From a virus, in the IMG/VR virus record IMGVR_UViG_3300022758_000234, positions 1-6,387 of that record: DNA of 6,387 nt. One strand, given 5' to 3'. Shown one piece after another: positions 1 through 6,387 of this stretch. The stretch's first letter is position 1; the number at the start of each line of letters is the position of its first letter. Position numbers and translations under genes: made by a program. The notes under the pieces are model-generated. The model had not been told where the DNA came from, did not search any database, and saw only the letters and a list, made by a program, of their open reading frames with translations.

Positions 1-127
1 TATTTCCGCTTCAATTCGAGACGTTTGTATAGCCGCTTAACACGTGGCACCAGGCGGTCGGAAAAATATCGAGGCAATAAAAGTTGTATAAGCTTCCCAC
101 GTTTATTTATGAACCGATAAAAAAAAA
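1..127. repeat. Terminal direct repeat (copy 1). It is identical to 6261-6387 and marks the circular junction / assembly over-run of a 6,260-nt circle.
   Basis: Positions 1-127 and 6261-6387 are identical base for base (tatttccgcttcaattcgag ... gaaccgataaaaaaaaa). The repeat lies inside the rep coding frame. Confidence 0.95.
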
Positions 128-980
128 TTTTGTCGTACAGAACTTTAAATTCTTCAAAATCCTGAACGTTCTCTATCTGCTGGCGCAGGTCGGGGTGAAG
201 CTTCATGAGCTTCTCAAAATACGCATTACCAACCCCTTTTGACACTACACGCGGAGGCTTCTGAACATAGCCAGCTTGAACATAGGGCGTTTGTTCATCA
301 AGATGTTTACAAACATACTTTGCCACATATTCAATCGTAGTGTCAGTACTTGCACGGTCGGACAAATCAATCTCTTTTATGTCAATCGCAGCGTCTTTAC
401 AATTGACGTCAGAAAAATGCGAAAGCCAATCGTTATATATTAAATCCTTGACCTGAGCAAAATCCTCATTTAAAAATATCAAACCGTGCCAGTGCGGCCT
501 GAACGTCAAAGGGCCATACTCGCCCTGAATAAAATATTTAATATCAAGCGTTTTATTAAAATGATACTGATATTGACGACGAACACGCTTTATATGCGCT
601 GAAATATCCGACTTCGAAAAAATGGGAACAAAAACGCCAGTATCAACATATTTTTCGGGGTTTAAATACCTATTAAATACATTTTCATGCGAAAGATTAT
701 ACTGCAAAGACTTCGAGGGATGCTCGTAAAAGTACTTTTTTAAAATATTGAAGAAGTCGCAATCATTGTTTACGAACTTCACATGTTTATACGAAAGAAA
801 TGTATTTGGATACTTATATGTAACAAAGAGCATATATCTATGCTGCTTAGATTCTTCCCTCAGGCGAACGAACCAAGAATTTGTTTGCTGGCGAGAACAT
901 TCGACGCAATCACCGCAAGGCCGATATATCAACCGACCTTGCGTATCACGCCTATTTGTGGGTACAGGATGCAAACACAT
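1..980 (-). CDS. Replication initiation protein (Microviridae VP4/Rep, HUH rolling-circle endonuclease). This is the N-terminal 327 codons. The gene starts at ATG 978-980 and continues past position 1 across the circular junction, with its C-terminal part at 5867..6260.
   Basis: Hand translation of the minus strand in the frame of ORF 5867..6337 is open from 1001 down to 1. The upstream stop is TAA (plus tta, 1002-1004) and the first ATG is at 978-980. The product begins MCLHPVPTNRRDTQGRLIYRPCGDCVECSRQQTNSWFVRL. It contains FVTYKY (810-827, RCR motif I-like), RPHWHGLIF (474-500, HUH motif), YVAKYVCK (306-329, YxxKY catalytic tyrosines) and SKGVGNAYF. The ORF track misses it because it crosses the window edge. 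Confidence 0.93.
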   Translation of the reverse strand, partial: MCLHPVPTNRRDTQGRLIYRPCGDCVECSRQQTNSWFVRLREESKQHRYMLFVTYKYPNTFLSYKHVKFVNNDCDFFNILKKYFYEHPSKSLQYNLSHENVFNRYLNPEKYVDTGVFVPIFSKSDISAHIKRVRRQYQYHFNKTLDIKYFIQGEYGPLTFRPHWHGLIFLNEDFAQVKDLIYNDWLSHFSDVNCKDAAIDIKEIDLSDRASTDTTIEYVAKYVCKHLDEQTPYVQAGYVQKPPRVVSKGVGNAYFEKLMKLHPDLRQQIENVQDFEEFKVLYDKIFFYRFINKRGKLIQLLLPRYFSDRLVPRVKRLYKRLELKRK

Positions 981-981
981 A

Positions 982-1536
982 TCAAAAAACCTTTGAAAAT
1001 TTTAGAATATTAAGAATAATACTCCTCATTGTATAATAAGTAGTCATAATCAACTCAGCAATATCTGATGTTAAGACTGCCGTATCTTTAAAAATTTTAA
1101 CATAGTCCAACAAATTATCGCAATCAGCAGAATAATCATCTTTGAAATCATCATCGACATTAATGTTCAATTCCGTAAGGGAAAGAGAGTGTCCGAACAG
1201 AATCCGAAAATCAGTATTAACAAAAAACTCTTGCAAAGCATCAAAATAAATCTTCGGCTCCAAAAAAACTTTCATAAACAAGGAAGTAAAAAACCCAGAG
1301 GACATAGCATCATATTTCGACATTGTTTGGTAATAAAGACGCTTATCTTCAACGTCAAAGTAAACAACGCAAACCGCGTTATCCGAGGAAGGACAACAAT
1401 CATAAGGATTATTGACCACAAAAAAACGCAAGGGACGAACAAAATCACGTTGTTTATCATTGGTTGACAAACGAAATTGATTTTTAATGGTATCAGTAAA
1501 ATCAACGGTACTTTTAAAATCGACTAATTGTTTCAT
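982..1536 (-). CDS. Hypothetical protein, 184 aa. It lies between VP2 and Rep, where several gokushoviruses carry the internal scaffolding protein VP3, so a tentative VP3-like assignment by position only.
   Basis: Complete ORF on the same strand as all other genes. Its stop (TGA at 982-984) lies 1 nt from the Rep start codon. It fills the gap between VP2 and Rep. It contains acidic stretches (NINVDDDFKDDYSADCDNLLDY) compatible with a scaffolding role. No motif is recognised by eye. Confidence 0.75.
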   Translation of the reverse strand: MKQLVDFKSTVDFTDTIKNQFRLSTNDKQRDFVRPLRFFVVNNPYDCCPSSDNAVCVVYFDVEDKRLYYQTMSKYDAMSSGFFTSLFMKVFLEPKIYFDALQEFFVNTDFRILFGHSLSLTELNINVDDDFKDDYSADCDNLLDYVKIFKDTAVLTSDIAELIMTTYYTMRSIILNILKFSKVF

Positions 1537-1634
1537 AATGTTAATTTTTGTTAATGGATAAAAGTGTTTTTTTTTCTATGTGTCAAAGATAAGAATTAAT
1601 GTGTACACAAACAAATTAAAAGTGTAAAAAAATC

Positions 1635-1650
1635 AAAAAAAATTTTTTTT
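1635..1650. repeat. A8T8 perfect palindrome in the VP2 / 184-aa intergenic region. Nearby are a T9 run (1567-1575) and an A7 run (1626-1632).
   Basis: aaaaaaaatttttttt is read directly. It lies in a 137-nt homopolymer-rich non-coding region, 1537-1673. Confidence 0.6.
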
Positions 1651-1673
1651 CCACTTCGCGGAAATTAAAATAC

Positions 1674-3008
1674 TCATTTCGCCAAAGGCGTTTGTGTTAC
1701 AGTTGTTGTACTACCACCAGTCATAACACCTTGTGAATCAAAATTTGTTGTCGTCGTTGTACCTGTATAACCCCCTGAGCGACCAATATTAGAATACGGA
1801 AACACAATGCCCGTAACAGCGTTGGCCACATTAACAAGATTTCCAAAAATACAATCAACAATCGAAAGTTTACGATGTGTCTCCATTGAGCGCACCTGCT
1901 GTTTAAGATTATTAACCTGCTCATTAGGTCCTCCTGCATCGAGCCACGCGTCAACTTGCGCCTCCATTGCCTTGAAATAATCGGAAGAGGAACTATAATG
2001 CTGGGCTTGGGTGTCCATAAGACGCTTTTGAAAATCAAGCGTTTCTCGAAGTGTTTCAGCCTGCCAATTCGTAAGAGTGGTTTGGGCAATAGACTGAGCA
2101 ATCTGAAAGTCTTTCTGCTCAATATCTTTCTTAATCCAAGAAATTTTCTTATTATTTACAGAAATTACAGAATCATTTACCTGCATACGAGACAGAGACT
2201 CATCAATAGCCTGACGACGTTCCTCTATCCATGTACCATCTTTGGCCAAACCCATTTGATTTTGAGCAGCACGATAATCGGCGTCAATAGAAGCGATACG
2301 CGCTTGTGCTTCTTTCAACTGAGAATCTACACGCGTATTTTCTTTGAGTTCGTCATAATAATGCTCTTGCGAACGCTTCAAATGAGCATCGCGATACTCA
2401 TCATAAATACGAGAAACAGAACCTATACCGTCCGTAAACATACCAAGCATCTCCAACAACATTTGACCGCCGGGAAGATTGGAAATACCAGCGCCCATAT
2501 CACCAACAGAAGCAGAAGCAGCAGAAGCGGCGCCAGAGGTAGCACCAGAACCAGCAGAAGCGGCAGCACCATTCATTGAAGTAGGACCTTGTGCACCGCC
2601 AGTCATAGCCAAAGCGGGATTCAAGCCAGCTTCCGAATATTGCCGCACCATTGCCTCAGGTGATTGATATTCGTTATACATTTCTTCTTGCCAAAAACGT
2701 TGTTTCTCGGCCTCAGCAGCATTAAACGCTTGCGAATTAGCTTGCATTTCTGCATTAAAAGCTTGCGCGTCCTCCTGCATAGCCCTATTAAACTCCATTT
2801 GTTCAAGCATTGTTTTGTAATTATACTGGGCTTGAAAAGCATCGGCAGCCGAAATACCTGCACCTGATTCGTACTCGTCATAAGAACGAGCCAAAGAACC
2901 GTTAATCAAATCCGTAAGCCAGCCAGAAGAAGACGAAAGGTTTCGCGTTATACGATGTGTTGCGTTAGCATAGGCGTTATTACGCCTTTTCCGTGATAAT
3001 ATTCCCAT
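1674..3008 (-). CDS. VP2-like DNA pilot / minor capsid protein, 444 aa.
   Basis: Large ORF immediately downstream of the capsid-proximal small genes. It has a basic N-terminus (MGILSRKRRNN), long Q/E/A-rich predicted coiled-coil segments, a Gly/Ala/Ser low-complexity tract and a Thr/Gly-rich C-terminus (GYTGTTTTTNFDSQGVMTGGSTTT). This composition and position are typical of Microviridae VP2 / H-type pilot proteins. Confidence 0.8.
   Translation of the reverse strand: MGILSRKRRNNAYANATHRITRNLSSSSGWLTDLINGSLARSYDEYESGAGISAADAFQAQYNYKTMLEQMEFNRAMQEDAQAFNAEMQANSQAFNAAEAEKQRFWQEEMYNEYQSPEAMVRQYSEAGLNPALAMTGGAQGPTSMNGAAASAGSGATSGAASAASASVGDMGAGISNLPGGQMLLEMLGMFTDGIGSVSRIYDEYRDAHLKRSQEHYYDELKENTRVDSQLKEAQARIASIDADYRAAQNQMGLAKDGTWIEERRQAIDESLSRMQVNDSVISVNNKKISWIKKDIEQKDFQIAQSIAQTTLTNWQAETLRETLDFQKRLMDTQAQHYSSSSDYFKAMEAQVDAWLDAGGPNEQVNNLKQQVRSMETHRKLSIVDCIFGNLVNVANAVTGIVFPYSNIGRSGGYTGTTTTTNFDSQGVMTGGSTTTVTQTPLAK
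2505..2570 (-). repeat. Imperfect tandem repeat (gcagaagc / cagcagaagcggc units) inside VP2, encoding a Gly/Ala/Ser low-complexity linker (GAAASAGSGATSGAASAASAS).
   Basis: gcagaagc occurs at 2512-2519, 2521-2528 and 2554-2561. cagcagaagcggc occurs at 2519-2531 and 2552-2564. Confidence 0.6.
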
Positions 3009-3010
3009 AA

Positions 3011-3289
3011 CTACCTACGTCTTACAGGTTCATCTTCACCAAACAAAAAATCGAAGAAAGAGAGTACGGTAGAAGCAATAGCGGAAATTGGACTTGAAGC
3101 AGAAGCGAGATTAATCATTTGCTGCATCATATTCTTACTTTGTTCGTCCTCATTAGAGGCCAACTCCTCGGCATTGGACATAACAGACTGAGAGGTTAAT
3201 TGCTGCATAGCCTGCATATTTTGCTGAACGTAAGAAGAAGACATTTTAAAGAACGAAGAAACACCATTTGTCATAAATTGAGATGCCAT
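3011..3289 (-). CDS. Hypothetical small protein, 92 aa, Q/M/S-rich and acidic, with a C-terminal hydrophobic helix ISAIASTVLSFFDFLF. It is translationally coupled to VP2.
   Basis: Complete ORF on the coding strand. Its stop at 3011-3013 lies 2 nt upstream of the VP2 ATG (3006-3008). It fills otherwise non-coding space. No family is recognised. Confidence 0.6.
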   Translation of the reverse strand: MASQFMTNGVSSFFKMSSSYVQQNMQAMQQLTSQSVMSNAEELASNEDEQSKNMMQQMINLASASSPISAIASTVLSFFDFLFGEDEPVRRR

Positions 3290-3332
3290 ATTTTCATATT
3301 TTAAGGATTGAACATTTTTATTTGTGTGTCAA

Positions 3333-3410
3333 TCCGCCGTACCATAGCGAGATACGGCGGAGTGATTGACGGTTGACCGTCAATCACCACCCGGCGACGA
3401 CGTCGCCGTA
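3333..3410. promoter_or_regulatory. GC-rich cluster of three adjacent perfect hairpins. It is a candidate complementary-strand origin (primase / RNA polymerase recognition structure) or another cis-acting structure.
   Basis: Hairpin 1: stem 3333-3341 (tccgccgta) pairs with 3353-3361 (tacggcgga), with an 11-nt loop. Hairpin 2: 3362-3373 (gtgattgacggt) pairs with 3376-3387 (accgtcaatcac), a 12-bp arm with a 2-nt centre. Hairpin 3: 3392-3399 (cggcgacg) pairs with 3401-3408 (cgtcgccg), centred on 3400. GC content is far above the rest of the genome. GGTTGAC-like words recur at 3371, 3411 and 3436. Confidence 0.5.
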
Positions 3411-3742
3411 GGTTGACTTGCGAGACCAGAACCAGGTTGATTGGAAGCGGCTGTACCGACATTTGATTGTAAACCGATATTAAGAGATTTAAAGCCCTTA
3501 GCAATCATCATCAAATCAAAATCGTTATTCACGCGAAAACCAACTTGTGAGATTTCCTTCAAATCATTATAAACAACATCGGTAACATCGTTAGGTATTG
3601 TTTGCGTTTTAATAATTTGGCCAATATCTACACCAAGACCTGGCAAAGTAACACCAAGCGTACACGGAGGAATTGTATTACGACCATAAAAAGTACGAGA
3701 AGCACGTTTTTTTATAATTTTTAGCTCTTTATCTGTTTTCAT
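3380..3742 (-). CDS. Hypothetical protein, 120 aa. Its C-terminal ~25 aa (AASNQPGSGLASQPTATSSPGGD) are encoded by the GC-rich hairpin cluster.
   Basis: Complete ORF on the coding strand between VP1 and the 92-aa gene, with ATG at 3740-3742. No His residues and no recognisable motif. The low-complexity tail suggests the 3' end is shaped by DNA structure rather than by protein constraint. Confidence 0.55.
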   Translation of the reverse strand: MKTDKELKIIKKRASRTFYGRNTIPPCTLGVTLPGLGVDIGQIIKTQTIPNDVTDVVYNDLKEISQVGFRVNNDFDLMMIAKGFKSLNIGLQSNVGTAASNQPGSGLASQPTATSSPGGD

Positions 3743-3882
3743 AACAAACTATTTAATGGATTGATTACTTGAATTATCGTTCTCTCGTTTTTCTTGACGT
3801 TTCTTTCTCAACCAGCGGACAGAATCCACAATCCAAGAGATAAAGAAGAATACGCCCTTTAAAATCTTTTTTGTTTGCTCTT

Positions 3883-5682
3883 TCATAACTGACGACCTCT
3901 ATATGGAACATTTTCTTTATGCGTATTTTTCAAATCACCAAGTGTAGGTATTACGTACTCAGCAAGAGGTGTAACTTTCTTGAATGAGAAGAAGAAGTCA
4001 GCCCAAGTAATAGCTCCCAAAGCATATTCGGCAGCTGTAACATAATCCAGCTCGTCAGGAGCTATTTCAACAAAAGACTTGCCGAGTTGAACGGACGAGA
4101 AATAACGTTGAAGAGTAAAAGCACTCAAATCCTCGGTAATCTGCAATCTACCGTGTACTTCATCATCATGGTATTTATATTCTGCATACTGCTGCTGATA
4201 GCCAAAAATGTCAGTACCAAAATATGAAACAGGATTTGTAACAGTAGAACCAGTTATGGCCAACTGAGGGTCAAGTATGAGCTCGGCATTATAAATAGGT
4301 TGTTCACCTAAGCCTTGCAACAGAGGATTTGCAAAATCGGAAATTTCAGAGCGAGAAAGATAACGACGAATACCAGTGCCATAATAAGCATGAGGGACAA
4401 CAGAAGCAATAACCATAAGGAAGCCATGCTCGGTTGACGTAAATGTATCAAACAAACTATCTTTCCCATAGCCATGCGTAGAACCCGCACGAGAACCGAC
4501 AGCACCATTAAAAGGATTTCGATTGTATGTTTCACTTTCGGCGGAATATGTAGAGTTAGAAACACCTTTCGTATAAAGACCAAATTTTGAAGAACCTAAG
4601 AAAAGAGGTCTATCCAACAAAGCGTCAGAAGGTAAAATGCCCCACGTAGCTTTTATCTGATCAGAATAACGCATACCAGCTATATTATTACGCTCCAACC
4701 AACGCTGCAAAACGTTCGCAGAACGTATTTGCGGTATGGTCAAATTACTTGCTCCGTCAGGTATTGCAATAGAAGCAGGAGACATAGCCGCCTGGGGATA
4801 AAACGCGGCCGTAGTATAATAATCTTTTTCCCAACAACGTTGGTGCAAAGAAAAAATCGAGGGAGTTTCGGTGTTAATACTTGATGTTGGCGCATTCCCG
4901 TGAAAAACAAGCGTAGAAGTCTGCCGCATTTGGAAATACTGCTCAGGAGTATTTTGGTTCTCCCAATAATGAGGGCCAGTGATACCTATAATGTTGTAGG
5001 TATTAACAACAGAATCCGTTTCCTGCCGAGAGGTATAAGGCAAAAACGAAACAGAATAATTTTCAGTAGATGTAGGCCGTACAAAAAGCGGTGTAATAAT
5101 ATTCGGATTTCGATACCAATCATCGTAAATTTTGTGATAGGCCATAAACGGCAAAATGTTGGGAACAAGTAAAAAACCGTCCGAAACTTGCTCAGCATTT
5201 TGCGTCGTCTTAAATCCGACATAATCCGCAAGAGAAGAAGCACCCCACATTGGCGAACCTGAATCCTTTTTAACAGAAGAACCAGCCAACTCATACTGAG
5301 CAATCGCAGCATCATAATTCTCGGACTTAAAGGTACGAACAACAGAGGGCAAATGAGTAGGCCTATAAACCTCAGGCGAAAATGGATTATAAACAGGCAT
5401 TGTCATGAAATCCTGCCAACCAGACCAGAGAATGCGATTCGGAACAAAAAACGCCTCCAAACGCATATCGATACGGCCATAAAACTCAGTAGCCATAGGT
5501 GGCAGTTGAGCTTCACACATGTAGCCAAGTGAATATGTTTCATTCGGCAGAACCTCTTCTACAAGAACGGGTATCAATGTTCCCGTCGTCATAGACAAAA
5601 CATTTTCAAATGACAAATCCATACCCGAACGATTGGGAATATCGACGGGTTGCTGCTTAAAAATTTTTGATAAATGTGCCAT
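3883..5682 (-). CDS. Major capsid protein VP1 (Microviridae F-type jelly-roll capsid), 599 aa.
   Basis: The N-terminal region matches the gokushovirus VP1 signature: DLSFENVLSMTTGTLIPVLVEEVLPNETYSL ... RLEAFFVPNRILWSGWQDF (compare S.F..S....G.LIP...EVLPGDT.SL ... FFVP.R..W). The size is typical of microviral VP1. ATG at 5680-5682 and TGA at 3883-3885. Confidence 0.95.
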   Translation of the reverse strand: MAHLSKIFKQQPVDIPNRSGMDLSFENVLSMTTGTLIPVLVEEVLPNETYSLGYMCEAQLPPMATEFYGRIDMRLEAFFVPNRILWSGWQDFMTMPVYNPFSPEVYRPTHLPSVVRTFKSENYDAAIAQYELAGSSVKKDSGSPMWGASSLADYVGFKTTQNAEQVSDGFLLVPNILPFMAYHKIYDDWYRNPNIITPLFVRPTSTENYSVSFLPYTSRQETDSVVNTYNIIGITGPHYWENQNTPEQYFQMRQTSTLVFHGNAPTSSINTETPSIFSLHQRCWEKDYYTTAAFYPQAAMSPASIAIPDGASNLTIPQIRSANVLQRWLERNNIAGMRYSDQIKATWGILPSDALLDRPLFLGSSKFGLYTKGVSNSTYSAESETYNRNPFNGAVGSRAGSTHGYGKDSLFDTFTSTEHGFLMVIASVVPHAYYGTGIRRYLSRSEISDFANPLLQGLGEQPIYNAELILDPQLAITGSTVTNPVSYFGTDIFGYQQQYAEYKYHDDEVHGRLQITEDLSAFTLQRYFSSVQLGKSFVEIAPDELDYVTAAEYALGAITWADFFFSFKKVTPLAEYVIPTLGDLKNTHKENVPYRGRQL

Positions 5683-5750
5683 AATATTTTTATTGGTTAA
5701 ACATTGAATATCGCAAAAGAAGAACTCATATTCGTTAATCCCAAATGGAT

Positions 5751-5799
5751 ATTATCAAATAATGTTAAAATAAAGCGTGATTTAACATTATTTAATAAT
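5751..5799. promoter_or_regulatory. AT-rich stem-loop in the Rep-VP1 intergenic region: a 13-bp perfect stem extending to 19 bp with one mismatch, and an 11-nt loop ataaagcgtga.
   Basis: 5757-5769 (aaataatgttaaa) is the exact reverse complement of 5781-5793 (tttaacattattt). The flanking 5751-5755 pairs with 5795-5799. An outer 11-bp inverted repeat, 5691-5701 (tattggttaaa) / 5812-5822 (tttaaccaata), brackets it. Confidence 0.5.
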
Positions 5800-5866
5800 C
5801 CTACATTTGTTTTTAACCAATATTAGATTCTATAAAGGCGATACAATGACAAACCAAAAAAAAACA

Positions 5867-6387
5867 TTAATAGGCTAGAAGTGAGGAAACCGTACACTCG
5901 TCGAAAACAGCTCGGGTAACAGAATAGTAGGTGTTCGGCTTGGCTCGTCGTAAACGTACGCGAGCAGACGCTTCATAAAATTTCTTGTAAAGCGAATCCA
6001 CCTCACACGGCGACGCATCAACCAATTCTGAGGCCGACTTTCCAAGTAACTCAGAAAATTTTTCCTCAAAAAGTATTCGTAAGTAACAATCCTTAAATCG
6101 AACAAATTTTGCCGCAGTATCGCGGATATAAGAAGAACAATTAACCGATCGAAAACGGGCAAAGTCTTTAACTTCGTGTCCATATTTTAAAACTTTATTA
6201 TTGAAAGATGAAATGCGAGAGGATATAATATTCACAACATATTCGGCGCCGTCATACACATATTTCCGCTTCAATTCGAGACGTTTGTATAGCCGCTTAA
6301 CACGTGGCACCAGGCGGTCGGAAAAATATCGAGGCAATAAAAGTTGTATAAGCTTCCCACGTTTATTTATGAACCGATAAAAAAAAA
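5867..6387 (-). CDS. Replication initiation protein VP4/Rep, C-terminal part of the same gene as 1..980. Positions 6261-6387 duplicate 1-127. The stop is TAA at 5867-5869. The full protein is 457 aa over 1,374 nt of the 6,260-nt circle.
   Basis: ORF 5867..6337 in the track starts at a TTG only because the frame is open to the window end. The same frame continues uninterrupted into 127->1 of the first repeat copy. The C-terminal 170 aa are basic (RLVPRVKRLYKRLELKRKY, ARVRLRRAKP) and contain no Met. Confidence 0.9.
   Translation of the reverse strand, partial: FFYRFINKRGKLIQLLLPRYFSDRLVPRVKRLYKRLELKRKYVYDGAEYVVNIISSRISSFNNKVLKYGHEVKDFARFRSVNCSSYIRDTAAKFVRFKDCYLRILFEEKFSELLGKSASELVDASPCEVDSLYKKFYEASARVRLRRAKPNTYYSVTRAVFDECTVSSLLAY
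6261..6387. repeat. Terminal direct repeat (copy 2), identical to 1-127.
   Basis: Same as above. Confidence 0.95.

Follow-up and report, generated by a model that had tools for sequence, protein, structure and literature searches.

A conserved hairpin module in a gut microvirus genome: a candidate viral-strand origin of replication

Why should a microvirus whose genome is otherwise AT-rich keep a run of GC-rich perfect hairpins between two of its genes? The question is raised by a 6,387-nt stretch of viral DNA (IMG/VR record IMGVR_UViG_3300022758_000234, positions 1 to 6,387; here called the window), which comprises a 6260-nt circular microvirus genome and a 127-nt assembly overlap, positions 1-127 and 6261-6387 being an identical direct repeat that represents an assembler k-mer overlap. 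All of the genes lie on the minus strand, which is thus the mRNA sense, and since in the Microviridae the mRNA sense is also the virion sense, the virion strand corresponds to the reverse complement of the window. The initial annotation took the hairpins for a complementary-strand (minus-strand) origin of the G4 or M13 type. We retain from this proposal the idea of a DNA structure tied to replication, but not the type of origin, because the hairpin that we call H1 carries a viral-strand signature, CT(T/C)G-N16-TGACAC. Our preferred reading, which we consider probable without being at all certain of it, is that the hairpin island is a replication-origin module, with H1 and the adjacent TTGACACA box constituting the viral-strand origin, or ori(+).

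The hairpin island and its fold

The elements of the island, in virion-sense order, are as follows.

3411-3417, minus strand: GTCAACC, the 5' strand of a closing stem, seen in the minimum-free-energy and RNAalifold consensus folds
3392-3408, minus strand: H3, with arms 3392-3399 and 3401-3408 (8 bp) and 1 nt between the arms
3362-3387, minus strand: H2, with arms 3362-3373 and 3376-3387 (12 bp) and 2 nt between the arms
3333-3361, minus strand: H1, with arms 3333-3341 and 3353-3361 (9 bp) and an 11-nt loop
3325-3332, minus strand: the TTGACACA box, which abuts H1 and is the 3' strand of the closing stem

A repeat search recovered the three perfect inverted repeats of 9, 12 and 8 bp on which the initial annotation was built. 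In virion sense H1 reads TCCGCCGTA / TCTCGCTATGG / TACGGCGGA; H2, directly 5' of this putative nick hairpin, is a perfect palindrome, GTGATTGACGGT CA ACCGTCAATCAC; and H3, which lies inside the last codons of a 120-aa open reading frame (ORF), is in practice a 7-bp stem with a 3-nt loop (CGGCGAC GTC GTCGCCG). The overlap with this ORF is smaller than the roughly 25 codons first supposed: it takes in H3 and half of H2 only, or about the ten last codons, the TGA stop (3380-3382) falling within the 5' arm of H2. The GC content of the island (0.60-0.63, against 0.39 for the genome) is indeed the maximum of the genome, and the recurrent GGTTGAC words are present as well, exactly at 3371 and 3411 and as AGGTTGA at 3410 and 3434.

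Folding in silico agrees with the repeat search. As DNA the island reaches -32.8 kcal/mol (z = -5.8, with none of 200 shuffled sequences as good) and as RNA it has a z of -5.6; it is the strongest 90-nt fold genome-wide (z = -6.2 against all other segments of this length, the runner-up being at -2.8). Perfect hairpins of 8 bp or more number 7 in the genome, compared with 1.7 ± 1.4 in dinucleotide shuffles, and three or more of them inside 100 nt occurred in 0 of 300 such shuffles. In the minimum-free-energy fold the closing stem, GTCAA (3417-3413) with TTGAC (3332-3328), makes the whole a four-way junction; GTCA (3417-3414) pairs with TGAC (3331-3328), and ACC (3413-3411) with GGT (3391-3389), the foot of H3. 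The fold energy is equal on the two strands, with a mean difference of -0.3 kcal/mol.

The junction has some room for other conformations. The word GATTGAC, in virion sense, occurs in the 5' arm of H2 and again right after H1, which gives the 3' arm of H2 a choice of two possible partners (the segments concerned are 3328-3334, 3364-3370 and 3379-3385). H1 can also be extended to 13 bp with one mismatch, giving an alternative conformation of the junction. Two independent metagenome contigs (L021 and L053) end in or at the centre of the H2 palindrome, presumably an assembly artefact of the perfect palindrome.

Selection on this structure was followed within the close clade, in nine distinct island sequences from genomes with 90-98% identity except in a few hypervariable patches. 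Four base pairs show double changes that keep the pair and none shows a one-sided change; such compensatory changes were what the initial annotation had proposed to look for. The proportion of paired cells is 98.8%, the covariation score was reached in 0 of 500 shuffles, and RNAalifold, unaided, predicts the same four-way junction. Within H2, pair 37/54 occurs as AU, GC and UA and pair 39/52 as GC and AU, and pair 40/51 is broken (A.G) in four of the nine sequences. H3 exists in two forms, CGGCGAC/GTCGCCG and CGACGGC/GCCGTCG, with two doubly compensated pairs. Meanwhile the tail of the 120-aa ORF shifts from TATSSPGGD to TTAAPSGGE; because this tail varies while the H3 pairing stays, it is the structure that is conserved and not the peptide, much as had been suspected. 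At the covarying positions of the nine sequences there are no G-U intermediates, all pairs being Watson-Crick, and this, along with the equal energy of the two strands, is a better fit to hairpins or cruciforms of DNA than to an element acting as RNA. No variation at all is seen, across 12 sequences of the clade, in H1 with its 11-nt loop, in the closing stem or in the next 40 nt.

A module shared among microviruses and its likeness to the phiX174 origin

The wider comparison took in some 15 lineages, with capsid identities down to about 25-30%. These lineages have in common the position of the module, between the small post-capsid ORF and the next gene, and also its plan: first (GT)GTCA(A), then one or two hairpins whose sequences are unrelated, then a last hairpin, the TTGACACA box, about 20 nt and the ATG of the next gene. 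The pair of flanking words, (GT)GTCA(A)...(T)TGAC(AC), is kept across lineages, with the box conserved in almost all of them, and the box covaries with its upstream partner in the closing stem (GTCAGG/CCTGAC in L047 and L048, GTGA/TCAC in L049 and L050). The last hairpin, which is the homologue of H1, is built from at least 14 different stems, all fully Watson-Crick, and has CTTG in every loop (for example ATACTTGATA, ACTTGAATA, AACTTGAATA, ACCTTGTAC, TCCTTGCGAAATAT and CTCTTGTCCTATA); the stem base TCCGCC.../...GGCGGA of H1 in the window is found in several other lineages. When the last hairpin and box of 15 lineages are aligned without gaps, both CT(T/C)G and TGACA are invariant, so that their separation stays constant however long the stem or loop. 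CTTG-N16-TGACAC occurs once per genome and on the coding strand only, the exceptions in spacing being the gut lineages L047, L048 and L066, with 17-18 nt.

As stem lengths are too unequal between lineages for a covariance model, hairpins and spacings were counted explicitly. Over 32 loci (31 microvirus genomes or contigs and the window), 39 CTTG loops on stems of 7 bp or more lie on the coding strand, against 9 on the opposite strand, counts that are not independent, the genomes being related. The rest of the module is freer. Relatives have from 1 to 3 hairpins and the three-hairpin arrangement is not conserved: other lineages carry a hairpin of different sequence in the position of H2, and H3 is specific to the clade, the third hairpin of a Sigmofec virus (OM869567) being of unrelated sequence. 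The GenBank records MT135367, OM869567 and MG945133 carry the module, and none of them annotates it. A scan of IMG/VR with TCCGC-N(8-34)-GCGGATTGACACA recovered relatives of the window that were already known, and its remaining matches, in unrelated contigs, were all due to chance.

Three cultured gokushoviruses, Chp2, SpV4 and phiMH2K, have a hairpin of this type too. Chp2 (L090, 2904-2941) has a 14-bp hairpin with the loop TCTACTTGAT, which holds the only CTTGAT of the genome; SpV4 (L091, 512-544) has a 10-bp hairpin with the loop ATTACTTGTTATA, followed by TTGAC; and phiMH2K (L089, 3296-3335) has an 11-bp hairpin whose loop contains TACTTGTT. In each of the three the (T)ACTTG-loop hairpin is the strongest or near-strongest, lies on the coding strand and is unannotated in the record. 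The 16-nt spacing is exact in SpV4 (TGACGAC) and approximate in phiMH2K (TCACAG) and Chp2, where spacing or box differ. A nick-site hairpin in gokusho- or alpa-like microviruses is undescribed in the searchable literature, whose coverage excludes the older SpV4 and Chp2 papers; within it, PMC9865509 is the sole source to describe conserved hairpins.

This geometry is that of a textbook origin. The rep_origin of the phiX174 RefSeq record is the A following CAACTTG, and G4 has the identical 30-mer, CAACTTG^ATATTAATAACACTATAGACCAC; both origins read CAACTTG^ATATTAATAACACTAT-AGACCAC, that is, CTTG-N16-AGAC. In the window the corresponding sequence is TATCTCG-CTATGGTACGGCGGAT-TGACACA, again with a 16-nt spacing, and at this fixed distance the TTGACACA box matches the position of AGACCAC, the right end of the 30-nt origin of phiX174. 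The core CTTG^A is found on the virion-sense strand of about 14 related lineages and of Chp2, SpV4 and phiMH2K, and the clade of the window has CTCG^C at the aligned position. The compensated stem and conserved loop expected of a nick-site stem-loop are seen through the distant lineages, H1 itself being invariant in the close clade. According to a preprint on saturation mutagenesis of phiX174, lethal synonymous changes in protein A span Q107-D115 (10.64898/2026.07.25.740675); these codons, CAA CTT GAT ... GAC, occupy the same span as the CTTG-to-box geometry.

The genome of the window also supplies a cognate enzyme, since its Rep has the motifs HWHGLIF and EYVAKYVCK, the latter with the two active-site tyrosines (YxxxY) of a two-tyrosine HUH Rep. 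Because a CTTG-loop hairpin and a 16-nt TGAC spacing match the phiX174/G4 geometry, we read H1 as the Rep nick site. H1 and the box would then be homologous to the ori(+) of phiX174, with the 3' arm of the hairpin in place of the AT-rich spacer. The motif is common to phages of Chlamydia, Spiroplasma, Bdellovibrio, Enterobacteria and Bacteroidales, five unrelated host groups, a distribution that would favour the conserved phage Rep over host priming enzymes as its recogniser.

How might such an origin work? A phiX174-type HUH Rep (HWH, YVAKY) would bind H1 and the TTGACACA box on the virion-sense strand and would cut the H1 loop after the G of CTCG, probably between 3348 and 3347 on the minus strand. 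On the replicative form this cut would start rolling-circle synthesis, and the same cut-and-rejoin reaction on the displaced single strand would close each round. The inverted repeat would serve to present the cleavage motif in single-stranded form, possibly by cruciform extrusion in supercoiled double-stranded DNA and as a hairpin once the strand is displaced. An accessory part would fall to H2 and H3, which share with H1 the junction closed by GTCAA/TTGAC and would most likely help in Rep loading or serve as the start site of the complementary strand. Lying immediately 5' of the nick, they would be the last sequence to become single-stranded, and by analogy a role as complementary-strand origin is plausible for them.

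Several points weigh against an ori(+) at H1. The loop of the clade is CTCG instead of CTTG, invariantly in 12 sequences, and the core motif of the family is thus not strictly matched; and a conserved phiX-like sequence, CTTGATATTAAATA, within Rep could be the true nick site. In phiX174 the origin lacks a hairpin and is located within gene A, which reduces the homology to a short motif and its spacing. In the close clade H1 and the closing stem are constant, and their covariation comes only from distant lineages that were aligned by hand. The ori(+) is a prediction from sequence, and for H2 and H3 the evidence favours no one role over another.

Other explanations for the island

The complementary-strand origin survives best in a restricted version, compatible with an ori(+) at H1, in which only H2 and H3 form a minus-strand origin beside the plus-strand origin; we regard this as possible, if somewhat doubtful. 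That the whole island is a minus-strand origin, its hairpins being read by host primase, PriA or RNA polymerase on virion DNA coated with single-strand-binding protein, seems unlikely. Both versions can appeal to the fact that the structure of H2 and H3 is kept while their sequence is free, which is the selection expected from a structure-specific host factor, and to a location just 5' of the putative nick, where phage Ff and rolling-circle plasmids have their minus-strand origins. The three stable GC-rich hairpins downstream of the capsid gene also recall the three hairpins in the F-G region of G4, and PMC9865509 proposes, without certifying it, a minus-strand role for the conserved, covarying hairpins of other small microviruses. 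However, the H1 loop motif and the fixed spacing of the box match the plus-strand origin of phiX174, and their occurrence in phages of unrelated host phyla is hard to reconcile with recognition by host primases. The hairpins, moreover, vary in number from 1 to 3 among relatives and fold equally stably on both strands. The island has no sequence similarity to G4 3884-4020, the oriC region, and no CTG primer start occurs within it or 3' of any hairpin, the only two being 5', although this is the G4 criterion and the triplet used in Bacteroidales may differ. Cumulative GC skew, which had been suggested as a check, declines steadily with no inflection specific to the island, and is uninformative for a rolling-circle genome coded on one strand.

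In plasmid single-strand origins of the ssoA type, a hairpin precedes the nick and its terminal loop shows, on the displaced strand, the CS-6 motif TAGCGT/A. The island has the corresponding position upstream of the nick; the CS-6 motif is missing from its virion-strand loops, TAGCGA being confined in the window to the strand opposite the H1 loop. In three relatives (L037, L041 and L044) the loop of an H2-like hairpin has GTAGCG on the virion strand, which resembles CS-6, and in these as well as in L008 and L042 the TAG stop of the small post-capsid ORF lies in the loop of the hairpin beside the nick hairpin.

A second possibility moves the nick site elsewhere, to the following motif.

535-549, minus strand: the nick-like motif GCTTGATATTAAATA, inside Rep, at codons T-L-D-I-K-Y

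The motif (also written as CTTGATATT or ACGCTTGATATTAAATA) shares an 11-mer with the core of the phiX174 origin, CTTGATATTAA, and the two are read in the same frame (L-D-I). The nick site of the clade could have been relocated here, to GCTTG^ATATTAAATA (549-535, minus strand), just as the origin of phiX174 lies within gene A, and H1 would then be a relic or have been re-used, for minus-strand priming or packaging. The motif is invariant in 16 members of the clade despite variation at neighbouring synonymous sites, the sole change seen being a G to A in L024 that gives ACTTGATA. Furthermore, it is confined to the clade whose H1 loop has lost CTTG and is absent from other clades, the sister lineage L026 having an intermediate form, CTTGAAATGAAATA. 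On the other side, the motif has no TGAC box 16 nt downstream, the AT-only 7-bp stem around it is lost in relatives, and the need to code for T-L-D-I-K-Y beside the conserved YFIQGEYG block can itself explain the conservation. The match was also found post hoc, and there is no variation in H1, its loop or the box, which keep the exact spacing of the family. We think a relocation quite improbable. Two further candidates in the genome or its relatives were rejected as origins. ACTTGATA also occurs at the start of the 120-aa ORF in relatives of the L002 type, where it is coding (K-E-L-D-K-I), and it is missing from the window, L013 and L019; and a hairpin with the loop TTACTTGGAAAG... in the 3' region of Rep (6026-6056) has a stem that is broken without compensation in relatives.

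Alternatively, the hairpins could work as RNA and be a terminator, an attenuator or a stabiliser of transcript 3' ends between the capsid-proximal genes and those of the pilot protein; the first two were an alternative reading of the initial annotation. In keeping with this, they have a gene on either side on the mRNA-sense strand, and their fold as RNA is good. There is also a precedent in phiX174, whose intergenic hairpins are terminators, one of them overlapping the minus-strand origin, according to the preprint (10.64898/2026.07.25.740675). Nevertheless, no T/U run follows any of the hairpins (the sequence after H1 is TTGACACACAAATAAAAATG), and a scan of 3000-3800 found no terminator-like site. 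To keep a loop sequence at constant spacing from a conserved box is not a property of terminators, the covarying positions include no G-U pairs, and we consider an RNA-level role very improbable. A scan of the same 3000-3800 region for the sigma-70 promoter consensus gave nothing at the island, where TTGACA has no usable -10 element, ARAGORN found no tRNA or tmRNA, and Rfam gave sub-threshold chance matches only.

Finally, H2 as a dimeric protein operator, or the island as a XerCD-type attachment site, would fit the perfect 12-2-12 palindrome of the window genome and the temperate relatives in Bacteroidales chromosomes, but is so improbable as to be largely refuted by the covariation pattern (T-A, A-T and G-C swap at an arm position, the centre of symmetry is not conserved, and relatives have the A.G mismatch in H2) and by prophage structure. 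The module is intact and internal in the prophages L060, L095, L096 and L097; since it survives whole inside integrated copies it is not an attachment site (XerCD/dif or attP), the prophage ends lying elsewhere and bacterial genes flanking L060.

The genome, the wider reading and comparison with known origins

The gene order on the minus strand is Rep, capsid, 45-aa ORF, 120-aa ORF, island, 92-aa ORF, pilot protein and 184-aa ORF. The genes with mapped positions are these.

1-980, minus strand: N-terminal part of Rep (HUH endonuclease), with HWH and the two-tyrosine motif EYVAKYVCK, continuing across the circle junction
5867-6260, minus strand: C-terminal part of Rep, a circular ORF of 457 aa in total
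3380-3742, minus strand: 120-aa ORF, function unassigned, its 3' end overlapping H2 and H3
3011-3289, minus strand: 92-aa ORF, starting 36 nt downstream of the TTGACACA box and 43 nt past H1
1674-3008, minus strand: pilot protein gene, downstream of the 92-aa ORF

The 457-aa Rep matches PF23343 (4e-9) and, weakly, PF05840 (Phage_GPA) over the same region; the 599-aa major capsid protein matches PHROG 514 (1e-82); and the DNA pilot protein has 444 aa. The 120-aa ORF has no match in PHROG or Pfam, and its homologues in relatives are 85-93% identical. No near-identical phage is present in INPHARED, the best capsid identity to a GenBank phage being 50%. About a dozen genomes of the same clade come from human-gut metagenomes and IMG/VR, with many more distant relatives, and prophages of related microviruses occur in Bacteroidales and Muribaculaceae assemblies. 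The microvirus is a gut, Bacteroidales-associated one.

The clade genomes, so similar elsewhere, drop to 37-65% nucleotide identity in discrete patches (about 4100-4400, 4800-5350, 3600-3790, 2850-3040 and 1000-1650), which correspond to surface regions of the capsid, the N-termini of the 120-aa ORF and the pilot protein, and the entire 184-aa ORF; this suggests module swapping or perhaps diversifying selection. Among the prophages, L028 (365-2526 and 6664-7736) and L029 (1848-7719 and 8236-9728) are tandem, non-identical microvirus prophages, about 85% identical, on long contigs. L060 is a single prophage between a Na/Pi cotransporter gene and a flavoprotein gene, and its ends fall after the last small ORF and before the small ORFs that lead up to Rep. 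In the gap between Rep and capsid (5757-5793, minus strand) there is an AT-rich perfect hairpin of 13 bp, AAATAATGTTAAA-TCACGCTTTAT-TTTAACATTATTT, found with small differences in the loop in L002, L003 and L013 also; possible roles for it include terminator, promoter region and further origin element. The pilot gene and the 184-aa ORF are separated by 137 nt of AT-rich sequence, in which an A8T8 palindrome, AAAAAAAATTTTTTTT (1626-1650), lies in a stretch of 25-27% GC.

A rolling-circle nick-site hairpin with neighbouring accessory hairpins is a kind of element that is already well known. With respect to the searchable literature, from which the older SpV4 and Chp2 papers are missing, the new features are its presence in microviruses outside the phiX174 group, the CTTG-N16-TGAC geometry, the closing junction and the CTCG variant; in that literature we found no mapping of the origins of microviruses outside the phiX174 group. 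Such phages make up the bulk of the family and are among the most abundant single-stranded DNA phages of the gut. It is tempting, though we put it forward tentatively, to suppose that the non-Bullavirinae microviruses share one ancestral origin module, of which the 30-nt origin of phiX174 is a hairpin-less derivative moved into gene A, with the accessory hairpins as the minus-strand origin and the clade of the window as either a CTCG specificity variant or a relocation into Rep. The ancestral module would consist of a covarying CTTG-loop hairpin with a TGAC(AC) box 16 nt on, to which the gut lineages would add a closing stem around one or two hairpins, and it would extend from the phages of Chlamydia, Spiroplasma and Bdellovibrio to the Bacteroidales-associated gut lineages. 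Both origins would then sit in one folded domain, as they do in phage Ff.

Such a module would have some practical consequences. CTTG-N16-TGAC in a hairpin loop is a searchable signature and would offer a natural zero coordinate for circular genomes, as well as a direct substrate for Rep nicking and for HUH-tag engineering. The module would account for the assembly breaks at the island, and it would connect the classic origin of phiX174 with the hairpin-borne ones known from other rolling-circle replicons. The CTCG variant and the phiX-like motif within Rep would together provide a natural test case for the evolution of Rep specificity and origin position.

How does the island compare with the systems that it resembles? 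Like the complementary-strand origin of G4, which is read by DnaG, it has three GC-rich virion-strand hairpins downstream of the major capsid gene; unlike it, the island shows no sequence similarity, no CTG 3' of a hairpin and no constant hairpin number, and its conserved hairpin bears a plus-origin signature. In the Ff phages (M13/f1), the gpII nick is in hairpin D, and directly upstream of it lies the minus-strand origin, made up of hairpins B and C. The arrangement is similar, with adjacent virion-strand hairpins, the nick in the last of them and the accessory hairpins just 5', although Rep and the sequences are unrelated; evidence of RNA-polymerase priming and a packaging hairpin were not found in the analysis of the window.

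Nick-site stem-loops are common among HUH-Rep replicons, including the CRESS-DNA viruses and geminiviruses, with a nonanucleotide in the loop, and the double-strand origins of the plasmids pT181 and pMV158; the nick sequence of the pC194/pUB110 family is CTTGATA. As in these replicons, the cleavage motif is in the loop of a covarying stem, in one copy per genome, and the CTTGATA core of the window's relatives is identical to that of phiX174 and the pC194 family. The microvirus Rep, in contrast to that of the CRESS viruses, is of another lineage and has no helicase domain, and the microvirus module adds to the other HUH-Rep origins a box at a fixed distance and a closing stem that encloses further hairpins.

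The island also resembles, by description, the hairpins of the reekeekee- and roodoodoo-microviruses (PMC9865509), which lie between the capsid and Rep-side genes and have identical loops, compensatory stem changes and stop codons inside. The authors left their function open, leaning to minus-strand initiation, and report no link to the nick motif of phiX174. There is, finally, the ori(+) of phiX174, G4 and other Bullavirinae, a 30-nt sequence that protein A cuts. The window site is intergenic, whereas that of phiX174 is within the Rep gene; its spacer is the GC-rich 3' arm of a hairpin rather than AT-rich sequence; and its motif, CTCG in this clade, is in a hairpin loop inside a closed multi-way junction. 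Yet the two belong to the same family, are paired with the same two-tyrosine type of HUH Rep, and have on the virion, or coding, strand the same 16-nt interval between CT(T/C)G and (A/T)GAC.

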